From the sequence record MW748999.1: a stretch of 64,000 nucleotides of DNA. The stretch is one strand, 5' to 3'. The position numbers and the translations under genes are program-made. The first letter of the stretch is position 1. Every line of letters starts with the position of its first letter. The notes under the pieces are model-generated. The model was not told the origin of the DNA. It did no database searches and saw only the letters and a list, made by a program, of their open reading frames with translations. This document shows positions 47,311-53,591 of this stretch, in pieces. Source of the DNA: Escherichia phage vB_EcoM_Skers.

Positions 47311-47589
47311 TTATAAAATAATTTTTTGATATTTTTCTATGATGTTCGTGTAAGTCACATCAACCGCTAGCACCGTTGCTTCGAATCCACCGTTTAGCCA
47401 ATGGCTATGATCATGATCGTGAAAGAAACCTAGACCAGTACGAAGACCTTCTTTATATTCTGCGCGTACATTCAGTTTGTCGTCGATAAACAGATAAAAC
47501 CATGAATTTTTACTAGGATTGATGATACAACCTTTCAGATTAGGGAGAATATCACGACTAAGAATAAACTTATCACCTACTTTGAACAT
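47311..47589 (-). CDS. H-x-H-W family small protein, member 2 (92 aa)
   Basis: motifs WFYLFIDDKLNV and HDHDHSHW...ATVLAVDVT. Confidence 0.6.
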   Translation of the reverse strand: MFKVGDKFILSRDILPNLKGCIINPSKNSWFYLFIDDKLNVRAEYKEGLRTGLGFFHDHDHSHWLNGGFEATVLAVDVTYTNIIEKYQKIIL

Positions 47590-47603: not shown

Positions 47604-47912
47604 TTATAAAGTTTGACCGTTGTTTTTCGCATAATGCTTAATGCGTGCTTGATCTGCTTCCGCTGGTGATAGATTCCATGCAACCACTACAACTTCTGAC
47701 GCATCATGATCATTATCACTTACCCAATGATTATGATTCATACAATTGTTTGCTATCGCGTGAGTAAATGATCTCATTACCGGAGACGTATAATCATAGT
47801 AACGGATTTTCAGATTTTCATCAACGTACAAGTAGATCGTATACGGCTTATATTCAGTAACCAGTAACAGACAGTTACGCAATTCTGGGAAAATCTTTTT
47901 AGTTAATTTCAT
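47604..47912 (-). CDS. H-x-H-W family small protein, member 3 (about 102 aa)
   Basis: ORF track 47604..47993; start placed at internal Met (MKLTKK) just after the upstream stop; motifs YTIYLYVDENLKI and MNHNHW...VVVVAWNLSPAEAD. Confidence 0.55.
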   Translation of the reverse strand: MKLTKKIFPELRNCLLLVTEYKPYTIYLYVDENLKIRYYDYTSPVMRSFTHAIANNCMNHNHWVSDNDHDASEVVVVAWNLSPAEADQARIKHYAKNNGQTL

Positions 47913-47913
47913 T

Positions 47914-48123
47914 TTATAATCCTCGGTCGCGGCTATAGTACACTGTACGCCATACAATTTCATGTTTCGTGTCGCTCCAGCACACGATCTCATTTACTCT
48001 TAAATCTTTGTTATCAACAAAAGATGAACATTGTGACGCTTCTTTCATCATTTTATCTGCTGTTTTCTCATCAAATACAGCACAGATTTCTTTATACACT
48101 CGATAATCTTTAAACTTGCTCAT
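47914..48123 (-). CDS. hypothetical small protein, MSKFKDY paralog 1 (about 69 aa)
   Basis: ORF track 47914..48135 with start at internal Met; N-terminus MSKFKDYRVYKEI...ADKMMKEASQCSSF parallels the adjacent paralog. Confidence 0.5.
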   Translation of the reverse strand: MSKFKDYRVYKEICAVFDEKTADKMMKEASQCSSFVDNKDLRVNEIVCWSDTKHEIVWRTVYYSRDRGL

Positions 48124-48125
48124 AA

Positions 48126-48335
48126 TTAACACCAATCAAGAGTTTTTGAAAACACATCTATCCATTGTTGAGTATATGCGGTTTCTTTCCATGACACAAT
48201 ACCAGTCGAATAATGGTTTTTGTTTCCAGAAAAGGACGGGCATTTTGATGCATCTTCCATCATCTTTTCGGCGAACTCTGGTGCGTATACTCGCAGGATC
48301 TGTTGATATGCTTTATAGTCTTTAAATTTGCTCAT
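48126..48335 (-). CDS. hypothetical small protein, MSKFKDY paralog 2 (69 aa)
   Basis: MSKFKDYKAYQQI...AEKMMEDASKCPSF; tandem with paralog 1. Confidence 0.5.
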   Translation of the reverse strand: MSKFKDYKAYQQILRVYAPEFAEKMMEDASKCPSFSGNKNHYSTGIVSWKETAYTQQWIDVFSKTLDWC

Positions 48336-48600
48336 AATCGTTAACTACCTTATCAGCTTCTTTTATTGTTTTTACATCAACTGCGATAATCCGTAAAGGT
48401 TCGTCGAAGGTCCACCAGTGGTCATGAATATCAGCTTGTGATTTATCACCAAAGGAATCACGAATATCATTTTTACATTTATAGCTAATGTGACCTTCAT
48501 AGTCAACATAAAGGTAATTATCGAAAATCGGCGTTTTTAAGATCATACCGAAAAATCTTTCTTTGTGTGTCTTATCCAGTGTTGCAGTAATTCGCATCAT
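48322..48600 (-). CDS. H-x-H-W family small protein, member 4 (92 aa)
   Basis: motifs NYLYVDYEGHI and HDHWW...RIIAVDVKTIKEAD. Confidence 0.6.
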   Translation of the reverse strand: MMRITATLDKTHKERFFGMILKTPIFDNYLYVDYEGHISYKCKNDIRDSFGDKSQADIHDHWWTFDEPLRIIAVDVKTIKEADKVVNDYEQI

Positions 48601-49025: not shown

Positions 49026-49096
49026 TTTTGATTCTCCTATATCTCGTTGGTATGTGTGTAGTATAGGGGATCACCGATCCCCTGTCAACAACTTTT
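49026..49096 (-). promoter_or_regulatory. PeSL-like early promoter cassette (near-identical to the one at 45755..45829)
   Basis: minus-strand TTGACA - GGGGATCGGTGATCCCC - TATACT; leader identical to the cassette upstream of copy A. Confidence 0.65.
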
Positions 49097-49399
49097 TTAT
49101 TCTTCGTCTTTATCTTTATATGCGTATTTCATAAATTTGTCTGCTACTTCATCGGCATGTTCCGATTCTACGTCGGATTCGAGAACAATAGCAAGATCGG
49201 TTTCGTCGTTTCCGTCATACCAATGATTATGGGTATCGTTTTCTTCGATATAGAATGAGTCATTTGGAGTTGGACGACAATATACATCTAAATTCTCATC
49301 GATGTAAAAGATCCAATCTTCGTAAAGAATAACCGTATTAGCCAGATTTTTATTGCCTTCAACGAAAGGTTCAGCTACAAATAGCTTAGTTTGTTCCAT
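49097..49399 (-). CDS. H-x-H-W family small protein, member 5 (about 100 aa)
   Basis: ORF track 49097..49456 with start at internal Met (MEQTKLF); motifs WIFYIDENLDV and THNHW...LAIVLESDVESEHAD. Confidence 0.55.
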   Translation of the reverse strand: MEQTKLFVAEPFVEGNKNLANTVILYEDWIFYIDENLDVYCRPTPNDSFYIEENDTHNHWYDGNDETDLAIVLESDVESEHADEVADKFMKYAYKDKDEE

Positions 49400-49415: not shown

Positions 49416-49607
49416 TTATACAGCTTCGTAAACTTCCCAATGTTCAGCGCCAGCACGCTTAACGAAAAGGTTTTCTTTGATGTTATTCATAAACGTCTGG
49501 ATGGATTTAATGCGGTTGGAAGGTTTCCAGTCTTCGTTGGAATTGCGTCGATACATCATAACATTACCAGATCGCTTATATTCAGCAACCATTTTAAGAC
49601 CACACAT
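49416..49607 (-). CDS. hypothetical basic protein (63 aa)
   Basis: ORF track; own promoter-like element upstream. Confidence 0.45.
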   Translation of the reverse strand: MCGLKMVAEYKRSGNVMMYRRNSNEDWKPSNRIKSIQTFMNNIKENLFVKRAGAEHWEVYEAV

Positions 49608-49685
49608 AATATTATCCTCAATTTGTGGGAGAGTATTACCCTCCCGATTATTGTTATACTACATTACGCAAAATGGCGTGTCAAT
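49608..49685 (-). promoter_or_regulatory. sigma70-like promoter with 5'-leader stem-loop
   Basis: minus-strand TTGACA - 17 nt - TAGTAT overlapping the 3' end of the upstream gene, then hairpin GGGAG...CTCCC and GAGGATAATATT-ATG. Confidence 0.5.
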
Positions 49686-49966
49686 GCTTCTTTTGCTGTT
49701 CCGCTAAGATTCTCGATCTCTCCTGGCATAACATCAACCGCCAGAACTTCTACAACATCCTCTGATCCTAACCAGTGAGTATGACCTTTGTAGAACTTGA
49801 TATCCCATTTATCGCTATCGCTAGCCCACCACACATCACCGTCGATAAAGTTGATGTAAAGCACACTACGACACATTGAATTAATTACTTTCAATACTGC
49901 GCCTTTCATATCTTCCACGGTATGGTCTTCCATTTTGAAGACCTCACCTACCTGAACTTTTGCCAT
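49664..49966 (-). CDS. H-x-H-W family small protein, member 6 (100 aa)
   Basis: motifs VLYINFIDGDV and GHTHW...VVEVLAVDVMPGE. Confidence 0.55.
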   Translation of the reverse strand: MAKVQVGEVFKMEDHTVEDMKGAVLKVINSMCRSVLYINFIDGDVWWASDSDKWDIKFYKGHTHWLGSEDVVEVLAVDVMPGEIENLSGTAKEALTRHFA

Positions 49967-49983
49967 TTAGTCACCTCTCTTTA

Positions 49984-50163
49984 TTACATAACAATCACGC
50001 CAGCCGTTGAAAGTTGATGTTTCAACTGAGCATTTTCTGCTACTGTCAAATCAATGATTTCTTGTGACGCTGCAATCATATAGCCATTGGTGATATTGTT
50101 TTTCATCAGTTCAATGGTTTCTTCGTTGTAGCGGATTTTAGCGATGATTTCGTTGAAGTTCAT
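49984..50163 (-). CDS. hypothetical small protein (about 59 aa)
   Basis: ORF track 49984..50229 with start at internal Met (MNFNEI) directly after the PeSL leader. Confidence 0.45.
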   Translation of the reverse strand: MNFNEIIAKIRYNEETIELMKNNITNGYMIAASQEIIDLTVAENAQLKHQLSTAGVIVM

Positions 50164-50239
50164 GTTTGATTCTCCTAGTTCGTTTCGGTATGTGTGTAGT
50201 ATAGGGGATCGGTGATCCCCTGTCAACAACTTTTTTGAA
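50164..50239 (-). promoter_or_regulatory. PeSL-like early promoter cassette
   Basis: minus-strand TTGACA - GGGGATCACCGATCCCC - TATACT; leader ACACACATACCGAAACGAACTAGGAGAATCAAAC-ATG. Confidence 0.65.
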
Positions 50240-50716
50240 TTATTTTTCTTGATGCTCGCGCTCGTACTTTTCGAAATAAAATTCTACTGGCTGGTCGTGG
50301 ATTGACAGTAAGCCAAAGCGTTTAGCCGCTCGCAATCCCATATTGCGCTGAATGTACTTCTGGAAGTTCTCGCGTATACACTTACGCCAGTATTCTAAGC
50401 CCATACAGCTTTTATAAAGATTGCATTGCACACATGCCGGATTCATGTTATCAAGTATATCATGCTCCGGTTTATGCATTCCTACAACCTTATACTTCCA
50501 CGATCCATCATCATTACGGGCAATTCGTCCATTTTCATCATAGACTACCTTTGAGCGTCGCAATACTGGTTTGATGTGGTCTGCGTGCCAGCGATCCCCT
50601 AGTTCCTCGCCACAATAGGCACAACGTCCACCATATTTCATTTTCAGGATCTGGCGTTGCTCTTTCTTTGACAATTTTTTAGGTTTAGGGGCTTTCGCCC
50701 CTTCATTATCACACAT
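50240..50716 (-). CDS. HNH endonuclease (free-standing, homing-endonuclease-like)
   Basis: 158 aa; HNH core GRCAYCGEEL...WHADHIKPV...NMNPACVQCN (Cys pair, His-x-Asp-His, Asn, Cys pair); start overlaps DNA ligase stop. Confidence 0.75.
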   Translation of the reverse strand: MCDNEGAKAPKPKKLSKKEQRQILKMKYGGRCAYCGEELGDRWHADHIKPVLRRSKVVYDENGRIARNDDGSWKYKVVGMHKPEHDILDNMNPACVQCNLYKSCMGLEYWRKCIRENFQKYIQRNMGLRAAKRFGLLSIHDQPVEFYFEKYEREHQEK

Positions 50717-52208
50717 CGAATACCTCTTTTACTGTATTTGCAGTGGTCTTGTCGTAGCGAATACGTTTGATGATCGGGAGAAATAAAGAGAACTCTGGTT
50801 CATCTTCTTTACGTGATTTGCTGCGGATATACCCGTTGCATGTCATCTCAATGACTTTTCCAATCAGGTTATGACGGTCAGCCCATAACATTTCTCGGTC
50901 AAGTTCATTTCTACGATCGAACGGAATCACACGTTCAATACCATCATCTTTTTCGGTTGTAGTGTCGGTCAATCCCGATCCGGTGTTGGTCATCATTCGT
51001 CCGCACGCACTACGGACAGTAAAACCGCCTACCTTATTAGGATCTTTACTATGCGGATATACATCAACAATTTCCGCGTCGAAGTCAATCACTTCTTTAA
51101 ATTTAACCTGATCTTTACTACGGCGATCTTCAAATACACCATGTAAATTTTTAAGGATAATACCTTCTAAGCCCATGTTTACATAGCGATGATATACTTC
51201 GCGAGCTTCATCTATATTGTTAACTACAGTGTTTTCGATTATCTGAACACGAGGATCGTTAAGTTCTTCAACAATCTGTTTTAGTTCTTCGAATCGATCT
51301 TTATATTGCTTCGTTGCTTTCTCGTTTCCGTAATACACATCACGGTCGATAACATCCCAGACAGTGTAAACAATACATTGGGCTTCTTCTTTTGGAATAG
51401 TTCCTTTCAGTGATTTGTTGAGGATACCATTTCCGGTCTGACGATCTGCAACAACGGATTCTTTTACTGCTTCCGCTACTGGCGTTAATGGCATTTCCTC
51501 TTCTTCAAATATCCATGACAGAGTACCATCATAAACGCTTTCAACGAAGTTCTGCGCTGGTGTTTGCGAAAGGGTAGGCATATATACCAATTCCCCATCT
51601 AGAACAATTCCACGGCCTCGTAGACGCTCTAAAACAGCAAACAAATCATCCAGCCCCTGATAGGTATTACCTGAACGGGTATAGATTGCTAATGTTTCCC
51701 CGTCAATATCAGCCATCCCACGAGCGCCATCGCTTTTAAGTTGTGCATACGCCGGATACTTGATATTAGCAATAGTCTTATCAGAACATGACGATGCAAG
51801 GTGGCACGGTTGCTGAGGGATCAGTTTCTTCCATACCTTGTTTGCAGTGGTAGCGGAACAACCGCATTCCAGATCACGATTCAGGACCATCATTGCAACT
51901 TTAGCATCATCTTCTGACAAGCAAGTCAGAGTATCGGTAACTAGCTGTAATGCTGCATTACCAGTTACTTGACGCGTGGCAAGTTTATTTTTAAAGACCT
52001 GTAATGCACCGGATAAAGACAATACAGACGAATAACGCGATGGTTTATCGTATTTCTTTACGCCAAACGTAACCTGTTTGCAATATGCCAGATAAAAACA
52101 TTCTTTCAGTGTTTCATTGCTTGCAGATTCTTTCAGGATCTTTTCTTTCAGCGATGTTTTGTCTGTTGCTGCAAGCTGGTTAATGATATTAAGAATTGAC
52201 ATTTTCAC
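50709..52208 (-). CDS. 30: gp30 ATP-dependent DNA ligase
   Basis: 499 aa (T4 ligase 487 aa); motif I lysine in AQLKSDGARG (KxDG); located after alt region as in T4. Confidence 0.9.
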   Translation of the reverse strand: MKMSILNIINQLAATDKTSLKEKILKESASNETLKECFYLAYCKQVTFGVKKYDKPSRYSSVLSLSGALQVFKNKLATRQVTGNAALQLVTDTLTCLSEDDAKVAMMVLNRDLECGCSATTANKVWKKLIPQQPCHLASSCSDKTIANIKYPAYAQLKSDGARGMADIDGETLAIYTRSGNTYQGLDDLFAVLERLRGRGIVLDGELVYMPTLSQTPAQNFVESVYDGTLSWIFEEEEMPLTPVAEAVKESVVADRQTGNGILNKSLKGTIPKEEAQCIVYTVWDVIDRDVYYGNEKATKQYKDRFEELKQIVEELNDPRVQIIENTVVNNIDEAREVYHRYVNMGLEGIILKNLHGVFEDRRSKDQVKFKEVIDFDAEIVDVYPHSKDPNKVGGFTVRSACGRMMTNTGSGLTDTTTEKDDGIERVIPFDRRNELDREMLWADRHNLIGKVIEMTCNGYIRSKSRKEDEPEFSLFLPIIKRIRYDKTTANTVKEVFDV

Positions 52209-52668
52209 CTCGTTTTGTTAAACGTTCACGAATATCATTGAGGATACTACAAAATTCCGATTCAGTCAATATAGTCTTTAACGGATCAGTTCCACCTATG
52301 CTATGTCGCAATTTCTTATTTCCGGTCGCGAGTAATGCTTTACAAAATTCTGGGTTATTCCGTGCCATCGTAACAAATGCCAGATGTACCAGTCTGTAAT
52401 AATGCTCACTCATTCGATGAATCGGGCGACCCTGAAAATATAACATGTGATTCTCAATCTTTTCAGTTCTTCCGGTTCTTTTTGCTTTGCCACCGTGCAT
52501 CAAAAAGATTTCTCTTTGTCTCTGAGGGTTCTTAAATCTTAGCCCCTGTAAAAATCCTTCTGTGCTGTTAATATCGCAACCAAATAGACGGAATGGTCTT
52601 TTATTGAAATTACTCAATTCACCCGATGGATAAGGTCCACCCGCATAGATATCAATTTCAGAAGTCAT
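52189..52668 (-). CDS. NADAR (YbiA/DUF1768) domain protein
   Basis: 159 aa; patterns ELSNF...PF, NSTEGFLQGLRF and KALLATG parallel E. coli YbiA segments (DFSNF, PTSEHYFQAQKF, ALLLAT) as remembered. Confidence 0.6.
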   Translation of the reverse strand: MTSEIDIYAGGPYPSGELSNFNKRPFRLFGCDINSTEGFLQGLRFKNPQRQREIFLMHGGKAKRTGRTEKIENHMLYFQGRPIHRMSEHYYRLVHLAFVTMARNNPEFCKALLATGNKKLRHSIGGTDPLKTILTESEFCSILNDIRERLTKRGENVNS

Positions 52669-52822
52669 TGAAACTAATCTCGCTAATCAGAGAGAACGGA
52701 TCATAATCGTCATTAGGAATATCGATAGTAATCGAATGAGGATTTACCCATACACCAAACTGGTCTTCTTCGGTGAATACTTCGGTATGGATTTCGTGGA
52801 TGTTTACATTCATAGTTTTCAT
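52658..52822 (-). CDS. hypothetical small acidic protein (about 54 aa)
   Basis: hand-translated (MKTMNVNIHEIHTEVFTEEDQFGVWVNPHS...); SD AAGGAA upstream; 3' end overlaps NADAR gene start; below track cutoff. Confidence 0.3.
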   Translation of the reverse strand: MKTMNVNIHEIHTEVFTEEDQFGVWVNPHSITIDIPNDDYDPFSLISEISFNDF

Positions 52823-52861
52823 AATAAAATTCCTTAATAATCAATAACTTACAAAATCATA

Positions 52862-52893
52862 TAGCCAAAATATAGGCGGGATTATTTCCCGCC
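52862..52893 (-). terminator. rho-independent terminator after gene 31
   Basis: minus-strand GGCGGGAAATAATCCCGCC followed by TATATTTTGG. Confidence 0.6.
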
Positions 52894-52904
52894 GTTTAAA
52901 ATCA

Positions 52905-53228
52905 TTAACCGTAAACTACCACAATATTCTGTTTGTGCGTTACAGTCCATTTCAGGTCGATCTCTTCTTCCTTCTTAACGCCGTTAATAACGTCTGGATG
53001 AGGAACTTTATTCATCTTTCCATGTGGCAGTAGAACAGTTTTACCCAGCAATTCTTTATCTACCGTTTCACCAATATCAATAATCTTACCTACCAGCGGA
53101 ATCTCGCCCATAGTGCGCTTTTGCTCAATAATGATCCCCATAGAGCTTTTTACTTCGGTCCCTGCGCTTTCTGCTTTAGCTTCGATAATTACATAATCAC
53201 CAAGTGCTTTAGGAGTTTTAACGGTCAT
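52905..53228 (-). CDS. 31: gp31 head assembly co-chaperonin (GroES-like)
   Basis: 107 aa (T4 gp31 111 aa); GroES-like pattern (YVIIEAKAESAG, KVPHPDV parallel to T4 NVPHPFV). Confidence 0.75.
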   Translation of the reverse strand: MTVKTPKALGDYVIIEAKAESAGTEVKSSMGIIIEQKRTMGEIPLVGKIIDIGETVDKELLGKTVLLPHGKMNKVPHPDVINGVKKEEEIDLKWTVTHKQNIVVVYG

Positions 53229-53270
53229 AATTTTTATTACCTCTTCAAATCAATACAGTTTAATGATGAA

Positions 53271-53591
53271 TTATTTATAAATTTCGACGATCTGCGCTGG
53301 AGTCAGCCCGTCTACATTAATCAGACTATCAAGCCCAAAACTACGGAAACCTTCAACTGCAATTTCATATACTGGCAAAGATGTTTCTGATTCTTTACGC
53401 GGTTTTTCAACATTAGGAACTAACCACTTTTCGTATGTTTCAAACGGCATCAGTGCCGGATCTCGCGTGGCGAACATCTCACGGACAGTACCATCTTTCT
53501 TAGTAAACTGTAAAGAGTGAGTACCTACAGCAAGCATTTTCTTTAGTGCTTCACGAAGTGCGATATTATCAATTTGTTCAGTCATTATCAA
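53271..53591 (-). CDS. hypothetical protein (106 aa)
   Basis: ORF track; overlaps cd stop; no family recognised. Confidence 0.5.
   Translation of the reverse strand: MIMTEQIDNIALREALKKMLAVGTHSLQFTKKDGTVREMFATRDPALMPFETYEKWLVPNVEKPRKESETSLPVYEIAVEGFRSFGLDSLINVDGLTPAQIVEIYK

Follow-up and report, generated by a model that had tools for sequence, protein, structure and literature searches.

Among proteins of known structure, the closest relative of the gene product examined here is Gmet_0936 (PDB 4h9d), an HNH nickase from Geobacter metallireducens. Gmet_0936 is a small stand-alone protein that binds zinc through four cysteines, has an H-N-N set of residues and shows weak Mn-dependent nicking (PMC3765158). 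The phage protein shares its CxxC...DH...N...CxxCN layout and is about 27% identical to it over the core. It differs from Gmet_0936 in that its beta-hairpin insertion between H and N is 28 residues larger, and in having a conserved C-terminal helical domain that ends in FYFE and a basic N-terminal tail.

A second point of comparison comes from the homing genes of T4-type phages, namely the T4 mob and seg genes and RB49ORF040c, which differs between RB49 and phi1 (PMC2839356). Like the gene examined here, these genes lie between conserved DNA-metabolism genes and are of horizontal origin, and HNH chemistry is common to mob, ORF040c and the present gene. Zinc-ribbon HNH nickases of the N.phiGamma, HK97 gp74 and GVE2 HNHE type are found beside terminase genes, whereas our gene lies by neither a terminase gene nor a cos site, and its product has no significant sequence match to this type past the HNH core. 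The Cas9 HNH domain resembles it in fold only (15–23% identity), and the phage protein stands alone, with no guide-RNA machinery.

The DNA that we analyzed (the window, a 64,000-nucleotide stretch of Escherichia phage vB_EcoM_Skers) comes from a Krischvirus, that is, an RB49-like T4-type coliphage. Its region of interest is 96–99% identical to 58 Krischvirus records, which include RB49, Phi1, JSE, GEC-3S and related T4-type coliphages. The gene is RB49ORF212c (AAQ15441) and is thus already known and annotated in RB49 and its relatives. Orthologues in Phi1, JSE, GEC-3S, ECD7 and others occupy the same junction and share 97–99% nucleotide and 98–100% amino acid identity with the window copy. RefSeq records name the ORF ‘HNH endonuclease’. 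The sole mention of RB49ORF212c that we found in the literature is a table entry that lists it among ‘putative mobile DNA elements’ with a Pfam HNH match of 9.2e-7 (Nolan et al., 2006; PMC1524935).

The ORF encodes 158 amino acids from an ATG start and occupies positions 50240–50716 on the minus strand. It follows gene 30 (50709–52202, minus strand), which encodes an ATP-dependent DNA ligase according to the RB49 annotation and to matches with Pfam DNA_ligase_A_M (2.8e-22) and PHROG 114 (1e-141). The ligase ATG is placed at 52202 in RB49, while the mechanical ORF starts at a GTG at 52208. An earlier note on this DNA had described a 158-residue HNH ORF that overlaps the 3' end of the ligase gene, and this description is confirmed. 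The first 8 nt of the ORF, ATGTGTGA (50709–50716, minus strand), are the last 8 nt of the ligase gene, such that the HNH ATG begins 5 nt ahead of the first base of the ligase TGA (50709–50711). This junction string is invariant in all 12 Krischvirus-type loci compared; a more distant metagenome contig (L004) has a TAATG overlap instead. A Shine-Dalgarno sequence, AAGAGG (50723–50728, minus strand), can be read 6 nt upstream of the HNH ATG within the ligase coding sequence and is annotated as a ribosome-binding site in Ec_Makalu_003.

Several observations identify the product as an HNH protein. First, Pfam HNH (PF01844) matches with 27 bits, above its gathering cut-off of 21.4. This alignment covers only the first half-motif (residues 32–53) because about 40 residues separate DH from N...CxxCN. 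Second, PHROG 2118 (‘HNH endonuclease’) matches over the full length (residues 4–157, E = 7.9e-55). Third, in an alignment of 65 homologues at 35–69% identity, C32, C35, D46, H47, N90, P93, C95, C98, N99 and K102 are invariant, as is a C-terminal F-x-F-E. Finally, an AlphaFold2 model built from the same alignment (mean pLDDT 92.7) confidently predicts a beta-beta-alpha-metal HNH fold, and alignment and model agree on a conserved C-terminal helical region. Scans with NCBIfam and PADLOC returned only sub-threshold, generic HNH matches (retron HNH, PtuB and Cas9), and Pfam revealed no DNA-recognition domain besides HNH.

The predicted active site is complete and of the H-N-N, four-cysteine type. 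Its first half (C32-x2-C35...D46-H47; 50576–50623, minus strand) contains predicted zinc ligands and the predicted catalytic Asp-His, and its second half (N90...C95-x2-C98-N99-x2-K102; 50411–50449, minus strand) contains the remaining invariant residues. In a profile search of PDB sequences, the only solved structure recovered was 4h9d (E = 3e-5), in which C38, C41, D53 and H54 of Gmet_0936 (PMC3765158) align with C32, C35, D46 and H47, and N68, C73, C76 and N77 with N90, C95, C98 and N99. A single-protein sequence search of the PDB gave nothing below E = 0.19. By this alignment, the two CxxC pairs (C32, C35, C95 and C98) would bind zinc, H47 would serve as the general base, D46 and N99 would hold a catalytic Mg2+ or Mn2+, and N90 would brace the motif. 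The complete HNH signature claimed in the earlier note is thus borne out, and the protein is predicted to be a DNA endonuclease, most probably a nickase.

Some matches raise the possibility of a structure-specific nuclease that resolves branched DNA in the manner of T4 endonuclease VII or lambda Rap. The protein matches PHROG families labeled ‘endonuclease VII’ weakly (1e-9 and 6e-7), two of its BFVD neighbors carry the same label, and homologues lie near RecT and replication genes. RB49, however, keeps its own gene 49, and a BLASTP comparison with that gene's product aligns only 33 residues around the first CxxC (E = 0.008); similarity to T4 endonuclease VII (gp49) does not extend beyond the generic HNH core. 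In addition, Gmet_0936 is reported not to act on its own as a Holliday-junction resolvase (PMC3765158). We therefore reject the idea that the HNH protein substitutes for a missing endonuclease VII, as RB49 has gene 49 and the similarity is marginal, and we regard a resolvase function in general as decidedly improbable.

A position beside an essential gene is by itself no evidence of homing. The HNH ORF adjoins the ligase gene in all 58 Krischvirus records that hold the ligase (96.9–99.2% nucleotide identity). It is also present at five further Krischvirus-type loci, comprising three metagenome loci and two IMG/VR contigs, the latter being the only Krischvirus contigs that the IMG/VR search yielded. 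A search of phage, IMG/VR and metagenome collections for a junction without the HNH gene found no empty junction, and thus no endonuclease-less allele among relatives able to recombine. The nearest ligases without an adjoining HNH gene are at most about 42% identical at the amino acid level, and no HNH-less genome was found within the range of homologous recombination. Among 77 distant T4-like metagenome ligase loci (34–42% ligase identity), none has a member of this HNH family after the ligase.

Two of these 77 distant loci, both from freshwater, have an unrelated HNH-type ORF about 1 kb downstream of the ligase (L084, 5123–5686; L060, 4418–4981). These ORFs match the family profile weakly (E about 4e-5).

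The same 58 genomes supply an internal control in the form of the AP2-HNH gene RB49ORF040c, which lies beside gene 47 (RB49 locus L114, 4381–4935). This gene is sporadic, being present in 5 of the 58 records. In 52 of the non-carriers the site is cleanly empty, with a gap of about 570 bp, and in phiS it holds another endonuclease. The sequences that flank RB49ORF040c are 98% identical among carriers versus 91–96% in non-carriers. RB49ORF040c thus has the appearance of a homing element, active or recent, whose flanks were co-converted.

The HNH gene has also diverged in step with the ligase gene. Two metagenome contigs (L004 and L005) encode a ligase whose C-terminal half is 70% identical to that of the window, followed directly by a 155-residue HNH protein that is likewise 70% identical to its window counterpart. 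In the comparison of the window with L004, the HNH gene has a dN of 0.23 and the ligase gene one of 0.22, with both products at 70–71% amino acid identity, so the HNH gene shares the history of its flanking gene, whereas a homing gene would be expected to have a different one. Within Krischvirus, dS is similar for the two genes. Pairwise dN/dS ranges from 0 to 0.08 for the HNH gene, from 0.006 to 0.03 for the ligase gene and from 0 to 0.1 for gene 30.3, and the 15 nucleotide differences between the window and Ec_Makalu_003 copies of the HNH gene are all synonymous. These values exclude a dead remnant. The HNH ORF is real, intact and under purifying selection rather than a chance ORF; it has long been inherited with the ligase gene, under selection of nearly the same strength.

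Base composition was also considered as a marker of recent foreign import. The GC3 of the HNH gene is only mildly higher than the average for the window (z +1.4; rank 6 of 69 ORFs), which is uninformative and gives no sign of import.

A free-standing homing endonuclease that is active, or was so until very recently, would cut the ligase region of relatives that lack the gene, be copied by recombinational repair and hitch-hike on the essential ligase gene. HNH nucleases are one of the classic homing classes, and RB49ORF212c has been listed among putative mobile elements (PMC1524935). The position of the gene coincides exactly with the boundary between a conserved core gene and a hyperplastic region, only one lineage among the T4-type phages covered carries it, and its family is patchy in Stx and other phages. 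T4-type homing genes are, however, sporadic among close relatives and carry extra DNA-binding modules, whereas the present gene is fixed at one junction, encodes no domain besides HNH that Pfam recognizes, has co-diverged with its neighbor under a dN/dS near the ligase range and has no evident promoter of its own. The contrast with the sporadic RB49ORF040c, with its clean empty site and the higher flank identity of its carriers, and the failure to find any HNH-less relative close enough to recombine with in the collections searched, point in the same direction. The earlier note had pointed to homing endonucleases and had named universal presence with conserved synteny, together with a lack of nuclease activity, as an outcome that would refute its reading; the universal presence and conserved synteny are what the 58 records display. 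The homing reading is thus unsupported, and we consider it unlikely.

We favor, with a probability of roughly 0.6, a resident gene that is passed on vertically, is under selection and encodes a small HNH endonuclease which stands alone, is made together with the ligase and does not seem to be homing at present. Presence in all records and co-divergence with the ligase argue for such a domesticated resident. Its role would most likely be in phage DNA metabolism, such as the nicking or processing of DNA in the course of replication, recombination or repair. Several findings count against this reading. One is the patchiness of the family in other phages (4 of 217 Stx records), which fits an accessory or selfish gene. 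Another is the restriction of the gene to one lineage among the T4-type phages covered, which implies a past horizontal acquisition. A further one is a metagenome contig with a stop at codon 110 of the HNH gene, for which a sequencing error is possible.

That contig (L113, 4297–4330; TGG to TAG) is one of three Krischvirus-type contigs with a damaged HNH copy. Another has frameshifts (L029, 473–977), and in a third the gene runs after codon 75 into unrelated DNA of higher GC content, at the end of a scaffold (L112, 5225–5724). These copies are single metagenome contigs and may represent sequencing or assembly errors or rare knock-outs; as possible errors or chimeras, they were left out of the evidence.

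The HNH gene would be the last cistron of a gene string that runs from ORF215 through 30.3 and 30. Gene 30.3 (52189–52668, minus strand; Pfam Phage_30_3, 1.2e-38; RB49 annotation) overlaps the start of the ligase gene, and the overlaps along the string ORF215, 30.3, 30 and HNH are 11, 14 and 8 nt, in that order. A terminator-like hairpin after gene 31 (52875–52893, minus strand; annotated as a terminator in Ec_Makalu_003) marks the upstream limit of the string. Between this hairpin and ORF215 (52823–52905, minus strand), we found no convincing sigma-70 promoter. Promoter-like hexamer pairs in positions 49600–53400 number 9 against 10.9 expected, and the only strong one belongs to a PeSL cassette downstream of the HNH gene. 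No late promoter of the form TATAAATA was found near the HNH gene, the nearest such motif being upstream of gene 31.

Because of these overlaps, the flanking hairpins, the lack of any promoter excess and the lack of a nearby late promoter, co-transcription with coupled or Shine-Dalgarno-driven translation is the simplest reading, and the HNH gene is very probably co-expressed with the ligase gene. The co-expression proposed in the earlier note is thus supported at this level, as there is no intergenic space, the Shine-Dalgarno sequence lies in the 3' end of the ligase gene and promoter-like sites occur at chance frequency. Under this arrangement, the HNH protein would be translated from the ligase mRNA, starting from the internal Shine-Dalgarno sequence and the start codon that overlaps the ligase stop, and the PeSL hairpin right after the gene would end the transcription unit. 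We infer early timing, co-translation and the biological role, arguing for the role from gene neighborhood alone.

An RNA hairpin with a GNRA loop (AGGGGC-GAAA-GCCCCU; 50687–50702, minus strand) is predicted at codons 5–10 of the HNH gene, 7 nt past the ligase stop. The surrounding 81 nt have a predicted fold of -18 kcal/mol (z -2.9). The hairpin lies within an N-terminal extension (DNEGAKAP) that neither L004 nor the wider family has, and it is weakened in phage Cognac by one mismatch. Its effect could be to reduce HNH translation, or it could mark where the ligase message ends.

The proposed shared transcript raises the question of whether the two enzymes work as a nick-and-seal pair, in which programmed or damage-directed nicks are resealed by the co-translated ligase, or which behaves as an addiction-like module. 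Variants of this idea include nicks for recombination-dependent replication, AP-site repair and T5-like genome nicks. The coupled overlap is kept across the split at 70% identity even though its sequence changed from ATGTGTGA to TAATG. Gmet_0936, the closest relative with a solved structure, nicks DNA weakly in an Mn-dependent manner and has a preference for AP-site DNA (PMC3765158), and site-specific nicking is typical of small phage HNH proteins (PMC3592412). Against this, none of 18 non-Krischvirus homologue loci examined has a ligase-like ORF nearby; the pairing is lineage-specific and may reflect a landing site. Overlapping starts and stops are moreover the rule along the whole gene string, and nothing points to nicks in Krischvirus DNA. 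We consider a nick-and-seal pair quite unlikely. Should the two proteins act together, they would offer a small example of how a selfish-type nuclease can be taken into phage DNA metabolism, although nothing that we found requires this.

A stricter version, which we hold to be improbable, is an obligate, translationally coupled HNH-ligase pair, in which programmed or lesion-directed nicks in replicating Krischvirus DNA or in competing DNA are tolerated or exploited only when the ligase is co-expressed. Such a pair would account for the persistence of the gene at the ligase stop codon on both sides of the split at 70% identity.

The gene belongs to a large family. A tblastn search with the HNH protein returned 117 non-Krischvirus hits, below 60% identity. 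All of those sampled are siphovirus or temperate phage records of 12–79 kb, and no other Straboviridae or T4-type phages were among them. The nearest homologues are stand-alone HNH proteins of 120–160 residues that are 42–51% identical to the window protein. The family is single-domain and comprises 157 clusters at E<=1e-30 and 1533 at E<=1e-10 among 1.84 billion representatives. Most homologues are found in siphoviruses and prophages, within early modules or those for replication or recombination, with varying neighbors that include helicase, polymerase, primase, RecT, ParB and methylase genes. Examples are polymerase and helicase genes in eiAU, primase, methylase and ParB genes in Sasha, a helicase gene in fLi-Aba03 and a nearby RecT gene in a JGI contig. 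In an Stx phage, the homologue lies in the mosaic ‘ea’ region. The gene is rare in Stx phages: of 217 records in which the flanks match, the 4 noted above contain most of the region. A general association of HNH and ligase genes in the family can be dismissed, given the 18 loci described above.

T4-type phages package DNA by a headful mechanism with the gp17 nuclease, and T4-type packaging is not known to use a terminase-associated HNH factor. Many small phage HNH genes adjoin cos sites and terminase genes (PMC3592412), and in Bas77, an exception within the family, the homologue lies 765 bp upstream of the large terminase gene with two small ORFs between. An HNH protein that assists the terminase, as in the HK97 gp74 or N.phiGamma type, is extremely improbable here, as the neighbors in the window are the ligase gene and small hyperplastic-region ORFs rather than terminase genes, and most homologues belong to replication or early modules.

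Among the T4-type phages covered by the sampled tblastn hits and the metagenome ligase loci, only the Krischvirus lineage carries the gene, which must therefore have been horizontally acquired once, as a homing gene would have been. The sequence comparisons point to one capture event in the ancestry of Krischvirus followed by fixation, and to an insertion point at the 3' edge of the conserved gene block, where the hyperplastic region begins. The ancestor may have taken the gene from a large pool of HNH genes of about 130 codons, after which it would have diverged in step with the ligase gene.

The earlier note had also placed a PeSL cassette directly after the ORF. PeSLs were defined in RB49 and phi1 (PMC2839356), and a perfect one is indeed present in the window 14 nt past the HNH TAA stop (TTGACA-17 nt-TATACT; 50198–50226, minus strand). 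Its hexamers score 11 of 12 against the consensus and enclose the hairpin GGGGATC-ACC-GATCCCC. The whole cassette (50164–50239, minus strand) has the intergenic PeSL layout, with an AT-rich tract, the -35 hexamer TTGACA (50221–50226), the hairpin (50203–50221), the -10 hexamer TATACT (50198–50203), and a Shine-Dalgarno sequence and ATG for the next ORF. That ORF is the first small ORF of the hyperplastic region (59 codons; 49984–50163, minus strand; PHROG 14803) and is predicted to be PeSL-driven. A second perfect PeSL copy lies at 49060–49088. The RB49 PeSL211/210 hairpin, at the equivalent position, was a strong terminator in a reporter assay, and RB49 PeSLs 193/192 and 206/205 were shown to act as promoters (PMC2839356). 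PeSLs have also been reported in T4/PST and KVP40/nt-1 (PMC4122927). A link between the HNH gene and PeSL shuffling is unlikely to be required, since no T4-type phage outside Krischvirus is among the sampled HNH tblastn hits.

On L004 (1216–1320), a classical terminator (AAGCCGATCC...GGGGTCGGCTTTTT) comes after the HNH gene, and beyond it lies a separate promoter, TTGACA-17-TAATAT, with no hairpin between the hexamers. This terminator and promoter are an unfused version of the composite Krischvirus PeSL.

The 3' end of the HNH gene varies within Krischvirus. The window protein ends in ...YEREHQEK and the PeSL follows directly, whereas in RB49, JSE and Cognac the protein ends in ...YERENKE. Of the 58 Krischvirus records, 22 (those of RB49, JSE and Cognac type) have another sequence than the window in the last 16 nt of the ORF (50240–50255, minus strand). 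Two of the 22, RB49 and Cognac, were inspected, and in both ORF211c (114 codons; RB49 locus L014, 3136–3500) lies between the HNH gene and the PeSL. The junction TAATTCAAAAAAGTTGTTGACAGGGG comes after ORF211c in RB49 and Cognac and after the HNH gene in the window, and this shared junction therefore indicates that an insertion or deletion had its breakpoint within the 3' end of the HNH ORF.

Further into the hyperplastic region, five minus-strand ORFs of 92–104 codons (47311–47589, 47604–47915, 48322–48600, 49097–49399 and 49664–49966) are paralogues at 22–28% identity. They have in common an invariant D...HxHW and a ...VLAVDV... motif, and the two of the five that were scanned both fall into PHROG families of unknown function. 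Their neighbors at 47914–48135 and 48126–48335 both start with MSKFKDY.
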